Shown here: positions 8,496 to 62,014 of the stretch, one piece after another
Layout of the letters: each line of letters begins with the position of its first letter
Numbering within the stretch: position 1 is the stretch's first letter
Assembly (NCBI GenBank): GCA_964611205.1
Contig: CAZSZB010000002.1
Coordinates: 10,609 to 74,608 of the forward strand
Direction: 5' to 3'
Length of the DNA: 64,000 nucleotides
Source: an uncultured Candidatus Saccharibacteria bacterium
Lineage (GTDB): Bacteria > Patescibacteriota > Minisyncoccia > Phycocordibacterales > UBA918
Notes under the pieces: generated by a model
Seen by the model: only the letters and a program-made list of their open reading frames with translations
The model's database searches: none
What the model was told of the DNA's origin: nothing
Made by a program: the position numbers and the translations under genes

Positions 8496-8754
8496 AATAA
8501 TTCAGGACAATTGAAAATGTGAAATTCTCGTTCAATACGACGGTACCCTCAGAATGTTTGAGAGTCCGGTTATTCACAACTTTGGTCATCCAAAATTACT
8601 TCTAAAAACAAACCAGTTCAATCCAATTTGCGACTGCATATTATCATATTGAAGACGATTGTAAACTTTGACTCTGTTGAAAGAACCTAATCGAGACCTG
8701 GTCTCTAACTTAATTTCTTTGTAAAAGTAGCAAATGGGAGTTCTTAATTTATTT

Positions 8755-8985
8755 TGTGGACCAGACAGGATTCGGTCACTCTCGTGGATATTTTCTTCGT
8801 TCTATGAACTCAAAAATATCTCACTCCCTCGAATCTTACAGATTCTGTACAGGTTTCGCTCTAGCGAGCTGCAACCTTGTAATAAAATCTCCCAGACTTT
8901 ATTACACCATTCGTCGCGGTCCTCGGCTTAAGCCTGCGGACTCCGTCGCGACTCAGTTCGAATCCTGTCAAAGTCTCTCAAAAAC
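8755..8985 (-). repeat. long variant (A1) of the tRNA-linked hairpin element; ends in a third copy of the tRNA-Ala 3' end
   Basis: Read on the minus strand it has GACAGGATTCGAAC, which is the reverse complement of the tRNA-Ala T-arm 3' half. A long GC-rich hairpin follows. Then comes GTAATAAAGTC-TGGGAG-ATTTTATTAC, a hairpin with the family's TGGGAG loop. Then AGGTT..AACCT pairing and a TACAG-AAT-CTGTA hairpin. It ends ..CCGAATCCTGTCTGGTCCACA, which matches 20 nt of the tRNA-Ala 3' end. Confidence 0.5.
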
Positions 8986-9020
8986 AACAAAACCAAAGCA
9001 TTCGCTTTGGTTTTGGTTTT
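8975..9020 (-). terminator. terminator-like hairpin between elements A2 and A1
   Basis: Minus strand reads CCAAAGC-GAAT-GCTTTGG followed by TTTTGTTGTTTTTG. T-rich on both strands, so orientation is ambiguous. Confidence 0.4.
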
Positions 9021-9147
9021 TGTGGACCAGACAGGATTCGAAACATACTGTTTCAGTACAGGTTGTCAGTATTCTTAATGAATTAAGAATACTAGGCAAC
9101 CTCTTCGAATCCTGACGTAAAGCCTCCCAGGCTTTACTTCTGGTCCG
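9021..9147 (-). repeat. tRNA-linked hairpin element A2; candidate structured ncRNA or miniature insertion, built on the tRNA-Ala 3' end
   Basis: Minus strand parses as follows. CGGACCAG-AAG. Then GTAAAGCC-TGGGAG-GCTTTAC, the first hairpin. Then GTCAGGATTCGAAG-AGGTTGCC. Then a 12 bp hairpin AGTATTCTTAAT/TTAAGAATACT. Then GACAACCT, which pairs with AGGTTGCC. Then TACTG-AAA-CAGTA. Then GT-TTCGAATCCTGTCTGGTCCACA. The last 22 nt equal the tRNA-Ala 3' end. The first segments are its reverse complement, split by the YGGGAG hairpin. Confidence 0.6.
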
Positions 9148-9182
9148 AAATAAACAAACCGCAGACAAGCTGCGGTTTATTT
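9148..9182 (-). terminator. terminator-like hairpin directly downstream of tRNA-Ala
   Basis: CCGCAG-CTTGT-CTGCGG followed by TTTGTTTATTT on the minus strand. Confidence 0.5.
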
Positions 9183-9184
9183 TG

Positions 9185-9257
9185 TGGACCAGACAGGATT
9201 CGAACCCGCTGCCTCCTCAGTGCAAATGAGGCGCTCTACCAATTGAGCTACTGGCCC
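9185..9257 (-). tRNA. tRNA-Ala (anticodon UGC)
   Basis: 73 nt cloverleaf, GGGCCAGTAGCTCAATTGGTAGAGCGCCTCATTTGCACTGAGGAGGCAGCGGGTTCGAATCCTGTCTGGTCCA. G3:U70 alanine identity pair. Anticodon loop TTTGCAC. T-loop TTCGAAT. T-stem carries two G.U pairs. CCA is not encoded. Confidence 0.9.
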
Positions 9258-9372
9258 AAACGAGATAGTAAATATTCACTACTGATTACTGAGTCAGAAA
9301 GCTTCGCTTACTGCCCAACAAAATCTCGTAAGTGCCGCATATATTACTACACTCACAAGCAGAGTCAATCAG

Positions 9373-30756: not shown

Positions 30757-31023
30757 TTAACTTCTAATCAGTTTTTCTTTCTCACTTTTAGTTAGTTTTT
30801 TCCAGGCTGCTTCTTTGGTAGCAGCAGCTGATTTGTCTGAGCATCGTGTTTGGTAGACTAACTCTACTGGTCTCCTCACCCTTGTATATTTAGATCCTTT
30901 ATCCTTACCAGTCCCTAACCCATTATGCTCGGTTAATCTTCTATCTAAATCAGTCGTAATACCTGTGTACAAGGTCTCATCTGAGCAACGCACCATATAA
31001 ACAAACCACTTACTCTTAGACAT
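30757..31023 (-). CDS. stand-alone GIY-YIG nuclease-domain protein (UPF0213/YhbQ-like)
   Basis: 88 aa. WFVYMVRC.D.TLYTGITTDL.RRL.EHN motif. Confidence 0.75.
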   Translation of the reverse strand: MSKSKWFVYMVRCSDETLYTGITTDLDRRLTEHNGLGTGKDKGSKYTRVRRPVELVYQTRCSDKSAAATKEAAWKKLTKSEKEKLIRS

Positions 31024-31705: not shown

Positions 31706-31867
31706 GAGAGATGGCTAAGTGGAGCAAAAGTGAAGTGTTTCACTTTTGCTCCGGTCTTCGAACGAAGTGAGAAGATTGGCCGTTGTGAGCGAATGAGAAC
31801 AGGCCAAAGGAGGAAACGTAGTCGAACGCCTAATGAAGAACAAGCGTTCTTACAAAAACAAGTATAT
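31706..31867 (+). repeat. tRNA-Ser 5'-end-initiated repeat unit C1
   Basis: Begins GAGAGATGGCTAAGTGG, a copy of the tRNA-Ser 5' end. A 14 bp hairpin follows (GGAGCAAAAGTGAA-GTGT-TTCACTTTTGCTCC). Then GGTCTTCGAAC. It shares GTTGTGAG and AGGAGGAAAC with unit C2. Ends in a small hairpin. Confidence 0.5.
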
Positions 31868-32029
31868 GGAGAGATGGCTGAGTGGATGAAAAGCAAACTG
31901 CTTTGCTTTTCATCCGGTTTGCGAACCTGAGAGCAAAAAGGTCGTTGTGAGTTTACGAGCAGACCTTAGGAGGAAACCGAATCGAATGCTTATAATACAA
32001 TAAAGCATTACGTAAAAAAACAAATATAC
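31868..32029 (+). repeat. tRNA-Ser 5'-end-initiated repeat unit C2
   Basis: Begins GGAGAGATGGCTGAGTGG. The 14 bp hairpin GGATGAAAAGCAAA-CTG-CTTTGCTTTTCATCC co-varies with the C1 stem. GGTTTGCGAACC, GTTGTGAG and AGGAGGAAAC motifs shared with C1. Confidence 0.5.
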
Positions 32030-32123
32030 GGAGAGATGGCTGAGTGGATGTAATTGTCTGGGAGACAATTACATCCGACCAGAGGGAGGTGGACGAACTT
32101 GTTCGACCCGAAGCCATCTCTTC
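32030..32123 (+). repeat. tRNA-Ser 5'-end-initiated element C3 with a TGGGAG-loop hairpin and closing inverted repeat
   Basis: GGAGAGATGGCT-GAGT. Then the hairpin GGATGTAATTGTC-TGGGAG-ACAATTACATCC. Then ..GGACGAAC-TTG-TTCGACC... Then AGCCATCTCTTC. The ends are an 11-12 nt inverted repeat of the tRNA-Ser 5' end. The loop is the same YGGGAG as in elements A2, B and C4. Confidence 0.55.
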
Positions 32124-32136
32124 AAAAAGAAATAAC

Positions 32137-32223
32137 GGAGAGATGGCTGAGCGGTCGAAGGCGCACGCTTGGAAAGCGTGTGAGGGTTTACGCCCTCCGG
32201 GGGTTCGAATCCCCCTCTCTCCG
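32137..32223 (+). tRNA. tRNA-Ser (anticodon GGA), type II with long variable arm
   Basis: 87 nt. Acceptor GGAGAGA/TCTCTCC. Anticodon arm CACGC-TTGGAAA-GCGTG. Variable arm TGAGGGTTTACGCCCTCC. T-arm GGGGG-TTCGAAT-CCCCC. CCA not encoded. Confidence 0.9.
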
Positions 32224-32230
32224 CGAATAC

Positions 32231-32262
32231 AAAATAGCACCCTTTTTGGGGTGCTTATTTTG
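32231..32262 (+). terminator. terminator-like hairpin immediately after tRNA-Ser
   Basis: AAAATAGCACCC-TTTTT-GGGGTGCT followed by TATTTTGTT. Confidence 0.6.
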
Positions 32263-32265
32263 TTC

Positions 32266-32397
32266 GCGGAGAGAGGAGTAACTGTCTGGGAGACAGTTAC
32301 GTGGGATTCGAAAAGCTTTTGAGCTATTTTCAAGCTGGCGTAGAAAATAGCCAAAAGGTATACAGTCCATGTAATGGACGAATCCCCCTCTCTCCGC
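32266..32397 (+). repeat. tRNA-linked hairpin element C4, built on the tRNA-Ser 3' end
   Basis: GCGGAGAGAGG-AG. Then GTAACTGTC-TGGGAG-ACAGTTAC. Then GTGGGATTCGAAAAG-CTTTTGAGC. Then hairpin TATTTTC..GAAAATA. Then GCCAAAAGG. Then hairpin GTCCAT-GTA-ATGGAC. Ends GAATCCCCCTCTCTCCGC, copying the tRNA-Ser 3' end. Same architecture as A2 and B. Confidence 0.6.
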
Positions 32398-35953: not shown

Positions 35954-36139
35954 ATTTATTGATATACCAACTGACCAGCACTTCTTTCAGAAGCTGTTCA
36001 GGTTGTCGCTATTCTTTACAGAACAGCTGGCAACCTTCTACAACAGTCCCACTCTTTATCACGATAATGAGCATAGATTTCTTTTCCTGGTTTATTACCA
36101 AAACATCAACATCTTTATCTATTATTTAATTATAGGTCA

Positions 36140-61760: not shown

Positions 61761-61780
61761 GTCGTACCGATTGCTGCCAG

Positions 61781-61903
61781 ACTAGGACTCGAAACTTACA
61801 GTTTCAGTACCCGTTGTCATTATCTTTCATTCTTCAAGATAATAGGCAACGGCTTCGAATCCTAACGTAACAGTCTCCCGGACTGTTACTAGCTTGGCAG
61901 CTC
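61781..61903 (-). repeat. tRNA-linked hairpin element B, built on the tRNA-Gln 3' end
   Basis: Minus strand parses as follows. GAGCTGCCAAGCTAG. Then GTAACAGTC-CGGGAG-ACTGTTAC. Then GTTAGGATTCGAAG-CCGTTGCC. Then hairpin TATTATCTT..AAGATAATG. Then ACAACGG. Then GTACTGAAACTGTAAGT. Then TTCGAGTCCTAGTCTGGCAGC. The last ~21 nt are identical to the tRNA-Gln 3' end and the first segment is its reverse complement. Confidence 0.6.
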
Positions 61904-61935: not shown

Positions 61936-61943
61936 GCTAAGAG

Positions 61944-62014
61944 CTGCCAGACTAGGACTCGAACCTAGATAACATGGACCAGAACCATGTGTCCTACCAT
62001 TAGACGATCTGGCA
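61944..62014 (-). tRNA. tRNA-Gln (anticodon CUG)
   Basis: 71 nt, TGCCAGATCGTCTAATGGTAGGACACATGGTTCTGGTCCATGTTATCTAGGTTCGAGTCCTAGTCTGGCAG. U1-A72 first pair as in bacterial tRNA-Gln. Anticodon loop TTCTGGT. T-arm CTAGG-TTCGAGT-CCTAG. CCA not encoded. Confidence 0.85.

Follow-up and report, generated by a model that had tools for sequence, protein, structure and literature searches.

Our best reading of the element that follows tRNA-Ala in this DNA, here called A2, is that it may be the Patescibacterial counterpart of the tRNA-linked repeats (TLRs) of Escherichia coli, forming a structured module in the tRNA-Ala 3′ trailer. We give a probability of about one half to the proposal that A2 is a TLR-like structured RNA that is transcribed by read-through from the tRNA promoter and is bounded by tRNA-end sequences. 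Base pairing in helices P2-P6 of the element is under selection across 22 copies. The tRNA-linked repeat design itself is not new. In Patescibacteria, an unrelated lineage with very small genomes, it stands behind most sampled tRNAs and has a conserved, covarying core. Below, "the window" is the whole 64,000-nucleotide stretch of DNA that was analyzed.

Architecture of the tRNA-Ala locus

The features of the locus are as follows.

9341-9368, minus strand: promoter-like site TTGACT-16-TAATAT, 5′ of tRNA-Ala (consensus scan, a weak pattern match)
9184-9257, minus strand: tRNA-Ala(UGC), from ARAGORN, an Rfam tRNA match of 68.5 bits, and the sequence; CCA is not encoded
9180-9204, minus strand: source of the repeat, the last 25 nt of tRNA-Ala including trailer (sequence)
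9152-9182, minus strand: T1, a terminator-like hairpin between tRNA-Ala and A2 (inverted repeat I11 and sequence)
9024-9146, minus strand: A2, a type-I tRNA-linked structured element (MFE, covariance model R1, covariation of P2-P6)
9139-9146 with 9024-9031, minus strand: A2 helix P1
9117-9137, minus strand: A2 helix P2, loop CUGGGAG
9103-9114 with 9032-9043, minus strand: A2 helix P3
9097-9102 with 9060-9065, minus strand: A2 helix P4
9067-9094, minus strand: A2 helix P5
9045-9059, minus strand: A2 helix P6
9018-9042, minus strand: A2 direct repeat, 25 nt, exactly the tRNA-Ala 3′ end (offset 151, length 25)
8988-9015, minus strand: T2, an intrinsic-terminator-like hairpin with T-run, 3′ of A2 (scan: 12 pairs, then TTGTTTTTGA)

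A hairpin-rich element had been predicted 3′ of tRNA-Ala, and A2 is real and far above chance. It is ~123 nt long, begins 37 nt past the tRNA on the same strand, and has an MFE of -62.9 kcal/mol (folding z -10.9); covariance model R1 matches it at 9024-9147 with 105 bits. Its terminal 25 nt, TTCGAATCCTGTCTGGTCCACAAAA (9018-9042), are identical to the tRNA and trailer sequence at 9180-9204 and run from the T-loop to the discriminator, plus CAAAA. This match is slightly longer than the 22 nt originally claimed. The inverted cap split by a hairpin, another part of the original prediction, is exact for GGACCAG (9140-9146), the reverse complement of the tRNA-Ala acceptor 3′ strand, but only approximate for its second segment, GTCAGGATTCGAA (9104-9116), in which 12 of 13 positions agree with the reverse complement of TTCGAATCCTGTC. 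These two segments are separated by the CUGGGAG hairpin (9117-9137). Folded in this manner, A2 would be closed by a long helix whose 3′ strand copies the T-loop-to-discriminator portion of the tRNA and whose 5′ strand is its complement. A proposed long-range pair survives as AGGTTG/CAACCT, but its CC and GA bases are unpaired and form an internal loop. A K-turn in the P4/P5 internal loop was considered and rejected because GA is present on one strand only.

The tRNA-Ala 3′ end, T1, and the A2 5′ arm together form one long imperfect palindrome, in which the T-run of T1 adjoins the 5′ arm. This arm has two pairing options, namely the end of tRNA-Ala itself across T1 or the A2 3′ arm. A terminator scan called the T1 hairpin on the plus strand at 9156-9178. 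The site at 9341-9368 is the sole promoter-like match that the consensus scan gave 5′ of the tRNA-Ala/A2 unit; there is no room for a promoter after T1, and T2 follows the element.

Covariation and conservation of the core

Helices P2-P6 were evaluated in an alignment of 22 diverged sequences, and the shared core with compensatory stem changes that had been described for the window is clearly evident: 31 of the 38 pairs show compensatory changes. In the alignment 93.9% of cells are paired, whereas sliding the partners leaves 36-46%; the covariation score of 0.55 falls to 0.07-0.12 under the same control. None of 500 shuffles matched any observed measure of pairing or covariation. Several loops and junctions are conserved as well (CUGGGAG, GAAR, GUACYG, and U-GUA-A), and the differences between the tRNA-Leu elements of loci L008 and L010 are compensatory.

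The strong covariation of the core argues that the tRNA-linked repeat design is selected and is not debris. A partial duplication of the 3′ end is the classic scar of tRNA-targeted integration, and crossovers commonly fall in the T-loop, where the repeat starts. Both facts would suit a neutral origin, in which the elements are decayed attachment-site duplications from phages or islands once integrated at tRNA 3′ ends. However, neutral decay would not leave such strong covariation or conserved loops, which effectively refute it. The uniform element size (about 125-190 nt) and the presence of the same core behind many different tRNAs in distant Patescibacteria also speak against it, as does the inverted copy, which integration scars are not expected to hold.

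The strand on which the structure acts is less sharply indicated. G:U combinations outnumber A:C (24 vs 11), and the sense MFE is -56.5 kcal/mol compared with -54.1 kcal/mol for the antisense strand (p = 0.02). Because this strand bias is modest and most pairs are Watson-Crick, a DNA hairpin would also be compatible with the pairing data.

Additional copies in the window

Five further features related to A2 are present.

8748-8970, minus strand: A1, a rearranged second unit after A2 (sequence, hairpin scan, partial R1 match 8819-8913)
61773-61901, minus strand: element B, 3′ of tRNA-Gln(CUG) (61943-62014) (R1, 113 bits)
32266-32397, plus strand: element C, 3′ of tRNA-Ser(GGA) (32137-32224) (R1, 118 bits)
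31706-32125, plus strand: three mirror-image units 5′ of tRNA-Ser (repeats D1, I7, I12; folding; partial R1 match 32040-32104)
35980-36043, minus strand: isolated P4/P5/P6 core in an intergenic spacer, lacking both arms and a tRNA (R1 match 35980-36037, E 9e-7, model positions 47-116)

The copies predicted at tRNA-Gln and tRNA-Ser are therefore genuine by their R1 scores, and their arms are locus-specific. The arms of B copy the tRNA-Gln 3′ end, with a direct repeat of 21 nt, and its helix P3 has three G:U pairs on the minus strand; C has a direct repeat of 19 nt and a terminal stem of 11 bp. Folding z is -6.3 for B and -8.8 for C, and MFE values among the elements range from -52 to -67 kcal/mol. 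The long palindrome of tRNA end, T1, and 5′ arm recurs in the B and C regions (I1, I2). Pairwise identity among A2, B, and C within this genome is only 52-69%, but it reaches 78% between C and L022 and 77% between B and L021.

A1 has the order GACAGGATTCGAAC, GC-rich hairpin, CUGGGAG hairpin (8878-8906), P4/P5-like module, P6 with a UGUAA apex, extra sequence, and finally 27 nt that duplicate the tRNA-Ala 3′ end (8748-8774). Cores are module-shuffled in A1, L018, and L040, which weighs against the TLR-like RNA reading. Each mirror-image unit opens with the first 15-18 nt of tRNA-Ser (GGAGAGATGGCTGAG...), with U1 starting near 31706 and U2 at 31868; U3 (32030-32125) contains a CUGGGAG hairpin and terminates in an inverted copy, AGCCATCTCTTC. 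The 64 kb contain five hairpins with a CYGGGAG loop, every one of them next to one of the three tRNAs, and GGATTCGAA was seen 7 times versus 0.47 expected.

Occurrence among Patescibacteria

Related genomes carry homologous elements beside their tRNAs, as expected for the family originally suggested, and these genomes are other Patescibacteria. In a search of a genome collection, 9 of 11 matched loci were Patescibacterial, and the remaining two were chance matches within coding sequence. False positives of the pattern scans were a Dehalococcoidia coding sequence (L009, L014) and the coding sequence of L019, L020, L038, L039, and L046, which, judging by eye, we take to be GNAT-like.

A tRNA was scored as occupied if 10 nt or more of its 3′ end recurred exactly within 450 nt, and the whole repeat measures 15-72 nt. 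By this measure 18 of the 25 distinct tRNAs in the fetched loci are occupied, with their 3′ end repeated exactly at a distance of 125-340 nt downstream; the chance of such a copy is about 4e-4 per tRNA. Several core types are found behind Patescibacterial tRNAs in these loci. The high tRNA occupancy, the other core types, and the mirror-image elements 5′ of tRNA-Ser had not been noted originally. No described Patescibacterial counterpart was found in the literature.

Tandem units and DNA-level rearrangement

Units occur in tandem as A2+A1 in the window, as at least three in L015, and as five in L025, and the unit boundaries of these arrays fall at the repeat. Locus L002, from a near-identical strain, is precisely without one 266-bp unit, A1, which is bounded by the direct repeat. 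Strain comparisons gave no further clean indels at loci B and C, and contigs break inside or beside these elements. Repeat identity passes the mature tRNA end by 0-9 nt, and by 28-58 nt in L030 and L015. Such an extension suggests duplication of DNA, not a function of the RNA, and thus runs counter to the TLR-like RNA reading.

Alternatively, the element could be a recombination cassette that operates at the DNA level. A unit of repeat, T1, inverted arm, and core would be a small integrative or mobilizable module and would insert at a tRNA 3′ end via a folded hairpin site that recreates the double-stranded tRNA end, much like integron attC or the CTX-phi attP(+) hairpin, with the recombinase encoded elsewhere. 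The arrays with repeats at their unit boundaries, the unit that is present or absent between strains, the repeat that runs past the mature tRNA, and the long palindrome are all in keeping with this mechanism, as is an IS30-like ORF that adjoins the L025 array. Furthermore, triloops of the GNA type (GC-GAA-GC, U-GUA-A) are a common feature of stable DNA hairpins too. We regard such a cassette as an unlikely explanation. A Pfam scan of the 50 ORFs in the 64-kb window found no integrase, transposase, or reverse transcriptase, just as originally reported, and no tyrosine or serine recombinase domain. The arms differ with each tRNA, and so a single recombinase would need structure-based or guided recognition. 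Moreover, the copies within the genome are old (52-69% identity), most sampled tRNAs are occupied, compensatory evolution of the tRNA-Leu elements in related loci implies long residence under selection, and viral contigs scanned with the P2 hairpin gave no matches.

An empty site had been put forward as a sign of mobility. The 266-bp polymorphism is indeed precise at the repeat, but it does not decide for mobility because recombination between the 25-27-nt direct repeats explains it equally well. A transposon that copies its target's end, as originally entertained, fits poorly with the identity of only 52-69%, the occupancy of most sampled tRNAs, and the compensatory tRNA-Leu differences. MITEs and REP/BIME are likewise small, hairpin-forming, intergenic, and repeated, but the terminal repeats of the present element differ per locus, near-identical copies are absent from the genome, and association with tRNA ends is frequent. 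A MITE or other non-autonomous transposon is poorly supported, in view of the Ala-, Gln-, and Ser-specific arms and cores that are 52-69% identical within the window.

The elements are like integron attC and CTX-phi attP(+) sites in that imperfect inverted repeats vary in sequence but keep their structure and that cassettes follow one another in tandem, each bounded by a short direct repeat. In contrast, the elements described here have no integrase nearby, have arms of about 20 nt that are tRNA-derived rather than a conserved 7-bp core site, and carry only a terminator as cargo. An integron cassette or att site is not supported, as no site-specific recombinase of the tyrosine or serine type was found in the window. 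A retroelement primer-binding site was also dismissed, given that no CCA complement lies 5′ of the 5′ arm.

Relationship to E. coli tRNA-linked repeats and other RNAs

The tRNA-linked repeats of E. coli, reportedly described by Egan & Landy in 1978 and Rudd in 1999 and treated again by Stenum et al. in 2021 (PMC8144298), include RttR/rtT in the tyrT-tyrV operon and rrA/rrB/rrF in rrnA/B/D. The 3′ end of a TLR repeats 18-19 bp of the upstream tRNA or 5S 3′ end, and there are 1-5 tandem units per locus (PMC8144298). The rrA/B/F RNAs lie between T1 and T2, are made by read-through, and are processed (PMC8144298). The suggestion that the elements in the window belong to a previously undescribed kind consequently cannot be retained, as the E. 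coli repeats share their hallmark (PMC8144298).

The likeness extends to several particulars. A2, B, and C are positioned directly 3′ of a tRNA gene on the same strand, as TLRs are for tRNA or 5S genes. The 3′-end identity is 18-19 bp in E. coli and 15-27 here (A2 25, A1 27, B 21, and C 19 nt), and the 1-5 tandem units per E. coli locus are paralleled by A2+A1, L015, and L025. Units are 178 nt in E. coli and 162-266 here, and the repeat begins in the T-loop. Each unit at the E. coli tyrT locus has a direct copy, AATCCTTCCCCCACCACCA, and an inverted copy, GGGGAAGGAT, which are paired in the RttR MFE structure; an inverted copy likewise pairs with the tRNA-derived end in the Patescibacterial elements. 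Finally, A2 is flanked by T1 and T2, much as rrA/B/F lie between two terminators.

There are also clear differences. Rfam searches (gathering threshold and E up to 10) matched only tRNAs, with rtT, tmRNA, Y-RNA-like, and T-box entries all absent, and there is no detectable sequence homology between the E. coli TLRs and the Patescibacterial elements, which counts against the RNA reading. The Patescibacterial elements have covarying cores that are common to different tRNAs and distant genomes, and they occur at most sampled tRNAs rather than at ten loci. In Patescibacteria the inverted arm generally extends as far as the very end of the acceptor strand, and mirror-image 5′-linked versions exist.

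A true acceptor/T-arm mimic would have a 7-bp acceptor stacked coaxially on a 5-bp T-stem, an unpaired discriminator, and a closed T-loop. A2 branches after 7-8 bp, as tRNA does, but the branch is 9-11 bp in for B, C, L007, and L021, such that P2 sits 7-11 bp from the end among the elements. Pairing of the 5′ arm frequently extends to the discriminator and one base beyond (C, B, L021), and in L021 and L012 this arm matches the tRNA plus trailer better than it matches the element's own 3′ arm. Both the variable geometry and this better match weigh against the TLR-like RNA reading. Like plant mitochondrial t-elements, mascRNA, and the tRNA-like domain of tmRNA, the elements have an acceptor-like terminal helix made of their 5′ and 3′ ends, which could recruit tRNA end-processing enzymes. 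They differ from these RNAs in that they have no closed T-arm, no Rfam tRNA or tmRNA match, and a variable branch point and discriminator pairing; this variability also led us to reject a strict tRNA minihelix mimic.

The E. coli 3′ETS-leuZ RNA is another functional RNA that derives from a tRNA trailer and is co-transcribed with its tRNA (PMC8144298). It differs in having neither a tRNA-end copy nor a conserved multi-helix core, and it sponges RyhB and RybB and needs Hfq-type sRNAs, none of which were found here.

Possible expression and function

If A2 is a TLR-like RNA, it would have no promoter of its own. Transcription would come from the tRNA promoter, passing T1 by read-through or, where T1 is lacking, running on directly, and would stop at T2. 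Lacking its own promoter, the element should be present at a level that follows tRNA transcription. The spacer between tRNA and element is only 16-20 nt in L030, L031, and L037-Lys, where T1 is absent, and with so short a spacer any transcript from the tRNA promoter would be a joint one. Counter to the RNA reading, T1 looks like a competent terminator. Because only 14 of 25 downstream genes share the direction of the element, the element appears to go with the tRNA and not with the next gene, and a leader of the downstream gene was rejected for the same reason.

It seems reasonable to propose that the tRNA-derived terminal helix stabilizes the RNA. Given that the element has the same 3′ sequence context as the tRNA, the enzymes that mature tRNA 3′ ends could cut it back to a defined small RNA, and the conserved core loops might then bind a protein or RNA partner. 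Units may multiply, vanish, and swap cores via homologous recombination at the direct repeats and the near-universal T-loop sequence. CsrA was sought as a partner since GGA-type loops recall CsrA sponges; homologues of CsrA and Hfq were not found in the window or the fetched loci, which are a fraction of any genome. An H/ACA or box C/D-like guide was rejected because ACA and C/D boxes are absent and there is no constant unpaired target base.

Terminator-like hairpins bracket the element, its stability is high (-52 to -67 kcal/mol), and a solitary core exists in an ordinary intergenic spacer. In addition, 11 of 25 elements face a convergent gene, as would befit the end of a transcription unit, and an RNase J gene is present in the window. 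These observations might be reconciled with a purely cis-acting architecture that yields no functional free RNA, wherein the hairpins reinforce termination or insulation after highly transcribed tRNAs or shield ends from exonucleases such as RNase J. We find this unlikely, because the invariant loops and junctions (CUGGGAG, GAAR, GUACYG, GUA) and the multi-helix layout exceed the needs of a terminator or stability hairpin, and because it leaves the copying of the neighboring tRNA by the arms unexplained.

A role that uses those arms directly is an antisense or mimic RNA specific to each tRNA. Together, the 5′ arm and P3 strand complement about 19-20 nt of the T-loop-to-acceptor segment. They would anneal, in cis or in trans, to the cognate tRNA, pre-tRNA, or 3′ tRNA fragment, with the 3′ arm as a competitor, and so supply each tRNA with a sensor, sponge, or guide. 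The arms do match each tRNA across lineages: between L008 and L010, the changes in the tRNA-Trp arms track those in the tRNAs. The complementarity is bipartite and split by a hairpin, like guide-RNA pockets, and the 5′ arm can pair either with the tRNA end across T1 or with the 3′ arm. However, the target segment is buried in the acceptor and T stems of the tRNA, the 3′ arm holds the antisense strand in a very stable helix, and the position of the unpaired target base varies between copies. We also know of no partner protein, and overall we judge this function to be very improbable.

A wider and speculative reading gives most sampled Patescibacterial tRNA genes a cognate "shadow" RNA, with a 5′ arm antisense to the last ~20 nt of the tRNA, a 3′ arm that mimics them, and a core that recruits a lineage-specific protein, as a genome-wide system for sensing, quality control, or guiding on tRNA 3′ ends or fragments. 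Its counterpart would be a structure-recognized DNA recombination system that writes cassettes behind any tRNA. That one or the other of these exists seems to us quite unlikely.

Utility and annotation

Whichever role applies, the TLR-like elements of Patescibacteria offer a second lineage in which to approach the E. coli TLRs, which have been known since 1978 without an accepted function. The present analysis provides covariance model R1, conserved loops that can serve as bait for partners, and predictions of RNA ends. Co-culture with a host is possible for some Saccharibacteria. In these organisms, RNA-seq, end mapping, and deletion of a unit are feasible, and the results might account for the elements of Patescibacteria and E. 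coli alike.

Annotation is affected too, since the elements may break assemblies near tRNAs and do yield spurious ORFs. Several contigs terminate at or inside elements, and the spurious ORFs at 8756-9115 and 32044-32322 overlap elements in the window.

Anatomy of the element behind tRNA-Ala

The original prediction placed a structured element 3' of tRNA-Ala, capped by the end of that same tRNA. This is confirmed by the caps, by the predicted fold, by two sister copies of the same layout, and by the clustering of shared motifs at tRNA genes, and the arrangement is non-random. The relevant features are listed below in window coordinates; helices are numbered P1 to P6, arms are the tRNA-derived terminal strands, and the core is the remainder.

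Features of the window
9184-9257, minus strand: tRNA-Ala(UGC), one of three tRNA genes in the window
9152-9182, tRNA-Ala strand: T1, a terminator-like hairpin between tRNA-Ala and A2
9024-9146, tRNA-Ala strand: A2, the element that follows T1
8988-9015, tRNA-Ala strand: T2, a second terminator, after A2
8748-8970, after T2: A1, a second, rearranged unit whose last 27 nt copy the tRNA-Ala end
31706-32125 (approximate), plus strand: U1-U3, a tandem row of three units that precedes tRNA-Ser, each opening with the first 15-18 nt of that tRNA (GGAGAGATGGCTGAG...)
32137-32224, plus strand: tRNA-Ser(GGA)
32266-32397: C, laid out as A2, with arms copied from tRNA-Ser
35980-36043, minus strand: a solitary P4/P5/P6 core that lacks tRNA-derived arms and has no tRNA close by, matched by R1, the covariance model of CUGGGAG-hairpin (type I) elements (E 9e-7)
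61773-61901: B, laid out as A2, with arms copied from tRNA-Gln
61943-62014, minus strand: tRNA-Gln(CUG)

The 3' end of A2 is TTCGAATCCTGTCTGGTCCACAAAA (9018-9042), whose 25 nt are identical to 9180-9204, the T-loop-to-discriminator segment of tRNA-Ala plus trailer. The direct copy therefore stands as first described, except that its length had been given as 22 nt. The 5' start, GGACCAG, is the exact complement of the 3' strand of the tRNA-Ala acceptor. A hairpin at 9117-9137 carries the 7-nt loop CUGGGAG and is followed by GTCAGGATTCGAA, 12 of whose 13 positions agree with the complement of the T-stem/T-loop part. In the predicted fold (-62.9 kcal/mol, z = -10.9), terminal helix P1, side hairpin P2 and helix P3 lead to a three-way junction with P4/P5 and P6. 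The long-range core pair noted previously corresponds to P4; its pairing holds, and the bases CC/GA fall in an internal loop. As proposed, A2, B and C have a core in common and ends specific to Ala, Gln and Ser, respectively. All five CYGGGAG-loop hairpins in the 64 kb adjoin the three tRNAs, and GGATTCGAA occurs seven times in the window versus 0.47 expected.

Homologues and covariation

Homologues in Patescibacteria were found both in a genome collection and in metagenomes. A strict-motif scan of the former returned 11 loci, nine of them in Patescibacteria MAGs labeled Paceibacteria, Saccharibacteria or Parcubacteria; the other two lie in a Dehalococcoidia coding sequence, where the motif matches by chance. 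A P2-hairpin scan of the latter returned 31 loci, of which about 26 are true elements. No Rfam family matches the elements.

We aligned 22 diverged elements with MAFFT and derived a consensus with RNAalifold. This consensus contains P2, P3, P4/P5 and P6, with compensatory changes at 31 of 38 pairs, which bears out the compensatory stem changes originally noticed. An independent count found 93.9% of cells paired versus 36-46% after partners were shifted by 1-3 columns; covariation scored 0.55 versus 0.07-0.12 with shifted partners, and none of 500 shuffles attained any of the observed values. Selection for pairing in this family is as plainly observed as its anatomy and distribution. Because of the covariation, the notion that the elements are neutral integration scars is effectively excluded. 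The conserved unpaired positions are the CUGGGAG loop, a junction GAAR, GUACYG, and the P6 apex U-GUA-A. There is also a strand signal (24 G:U versus 11 A:C; sense folds better than antisense folds by a mean of 2.4 kcal/mol, p = 0.02) that modestly favors the expected direction.

Occupancy of tRNA genes and variety of cores

Of 25 distinct tRNAs in the Patescibacterial loci fetched, 18 are followed, 125-340 nt downstream, by an exact repeat of their own 3' end, where chance predicts about 4e-4 per tRNA. Ala, Tyr, Trp, Leu, Ser, His, Glu, Gln, Asn, Lys and Cys are among them. Measured whole, the repeats span 15-27 nt, or 42-72 nt in recent duplications, and decayed copies lie behind several of the remaining seven tRNAs. 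The sole sampled tRNA with an encoded CCA, Leu(GAG) at L017 4860-4944 (+), has no downstream element, although this is a single case. Behind tRNA-Thr in L028 (2709-2944, +), tandem units hold a CUGGGAG hairpin between a D-arm-like piece and a tRNA copy of about 50 nt (anticodon loop to 3' end), a far longer repeat than at other loci.

Many tRNA-linked elements carry, instead of the CUGGGAG hairpin, another structured core that we call type II (GAAAGACGGAGC...GCGAG...). Examples lie behind tRNA-Trp, Leu and Tyr at L008 3690-3830 and 4900-5078, L010 2663-2842 and 3838-3977, and L037 12630-12828. These cores also have a hairpin with loop GCGACGGC or GAGUGACGAC, and their arms are tRNA-derived as in type I. 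Part of A1 (8910-8956) resembles a type II core. Shuffled cores are found in A1, L018 and L040. Thus, the constant features are position and tRNA-derived arms; the cores belong to several families.

The arms track the tRNA across lineages: the tRNA-Trp acceptor stems of L008 and L010 differ, and the arms differ correspondingly. The tRNA-Leu elements of these two loci are clearly related, with compensatory differences. An element with tRNA-Ser-like arms in a different metagenome shares 78% identity with C, and a tRNA-Gln element from elsewhere shares 77% with B. L022 and L026 share their arms but not their cores. This is the pattern of long-established residents that are under selection and now and then exchange cores.

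U1-U3 are mirror forms of the 3'-linked elements. U1 and U2 are homologues of about 160 nt whose hairpins differ by compensatory changes; U3 contains a CUGGGAG hairpin; it closes with the tRNA-Ser 5' end in inverted copy, and the stem includes a G:U pair. Similar 5'-linked copies precede tRNA-Lys and tRNA-Cys in L037. The solitary core is located between genes for an M48 peptidase and a methyladenine glycosylase. Mechanically called ORFs of 92-133 aa that cross elements (8756-9115, +; 31953-32354, -; 32044-32322, +) are almost certainly spurious and risk being mis-annotated as genes.

Gain and loss of units

A near-identical strain (L002, Logan SRR30309628) lacks precisely the 266-bp unit T2+A1 (8775-9040), and the gap edges are two copies of CGAATCCTGTCTGGTCCACAAAA, the tRNA-Ala 3'-end repeat. 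Contigs L003-L005 stop a few bases past the tRNA-Ala 3' end, and L006 stops within the tRNA. L015 and L025 hold tandem arrays of three to five units. In L025 (972-2334, -, and 106-828, +), an array of five elements with no tRNA by ARAGORN adjoins an ORF that is presumably IS30-like, judging by eye from its translation; UAAAC replaces CUGGGAG in the P2 loop of two units.

The missing unit and the arrays establish that whole units are gained or lost at the repeat. A precise empty site of the kind sought as a sign of mobility therefore exists, but it does not single out a mobile element, since homologous recombination between direct repeats of 25-27 nt is enough to explain it. Unit turnover is also what a DNA-level hairpin recombination cassette would produce; beside the sufficiency of ordinary recombination, we consider such a cassette rather unlikely. 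The suggestion of a miniature insertion element that copies tRNA ends fared poorly, as the copies look like old residents: cores only 52-69% identical within one genome (A2, B and C), with compensatory divergence, do not fit a recently active transposon. Pfam scans of the 50 window ORFs found housekeeping genes only, with no integrase, transposase or reverse transcriptase, in agreement with the first reading, and among viral contigs the P2 motif gave no match. An 88-aa ORF for a stand-alone GIY-YIG nuclease domain (30757-31023, -) is located some 680 nt upstream of the repeat cluster at tRNA-Ser.

Likeness to E. coli tRNA-linked repeats

The tRNA-linked repeats (TLRs) were first seen in E. coli in 1978 as a 178-bp unit present in 3.14 repeats after tyrT, with no function known; there are 22 at ten loci, one to five per locus (PMC8144298). 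Three of these, rrA, rrB and rrF, sit in rRNA operons between the two terminators; they are made by T1 read-through and undergo processing. In vitro they bind Hfq and CsrA. In the authors' suggestion, the repeat at the 3' end brings about the end processing that 5S undergoes (PMC8144298). In the tyrT-tyrV-rttR region of MG1655, each tyrT-locus unit has both the 3' end AATCCTTCCCCCACCACCA and its reverse complement GGGGAAGGAT, and the two pair in the minimum-energy fold of RttR. Hence the cap with one inverted and one direct copy, the most striking part of the window finding, is already present in a known TLR, and the suggestion of an undescribed kind of family overstates the novelty.

The window elements are TLRs by descriptive definition and match the E. 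coli design, but not by homology, because there is no match to rtT in Rfam. Unlike E. coli TLRs, they have a conserved, covarying core common to different tRNAs and distant genomes, they lie behind most sampled tRNA genes of a very-small-genome lineage, and they have 5'-linked mirror forms. It is well supported that they are a structured variant of the TLR design, new and widespread in Patescibacteria, and they may bear on the unexplained TLRs of E. coli.

Proposed mode of action

We propose, with a probability of about 0.5, that the elements act as TLR-like RNAs that would be co-transcribed with the tRNA and have a tRNA-derived terminal helix and partner-binding loops. The T1 T-run and the 5' arm appear to leave no space for a promoter between them, and in L030, L031 and the tRNA-Lys locus of L037 a 16-20-nt spacer takes the place of T1. 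The simplest reading is therefore that transcription would begin at the tRNA promoter and end at T2, as for rrA, rrB and rrF. The spacer (L030 1389-1404; L031 near 2265-2281; L037 near 625-642) is conserved as AGTGAACGAAGTGAAC or similar and resembles the P5 apex motif GUGAGCGAAGCGAAAC. Of 25 downstream ORFs, only 14 run in the same direction as the element, so it belongs with the tRNA unit and not with the next gene.

The terminal helix would stabilize the RNA and present the tRNA's own 3' context to end-maturation enzymes, and the conserved loops would bind a putative partner. A purely cis-acting architecture for termination or stability could occupy the same place between T1 and T2; set beside those loops, we find it improbable. 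Perhaps the arms instead make a tRNA-specific antisense or mimic RNA, given their complementarity to the tRNA end; this seems quite improbable. The helix geometry is not that of a strict tRNA mimic: the branch point lies 7-11 bp inward of the terminus, and the discriminator is often paired. Repeat identity extends beyond the mature tRNA end, as expected of DNA duplication. This extension and the non-mimic geometry, together with expression that is predicted, set our estimate for the TLR-like RNA.

Two fetched loci also contain group I introns (L012 4720-4957; L013 2922-3234) and a third contains a LOOT RNA (L011 2502-2623), all unrelated to the element. A tRNA-like 3' end comes directly after the L012 intron and is itself followed by an element; we read this site as an intron-containing tRNA gene.
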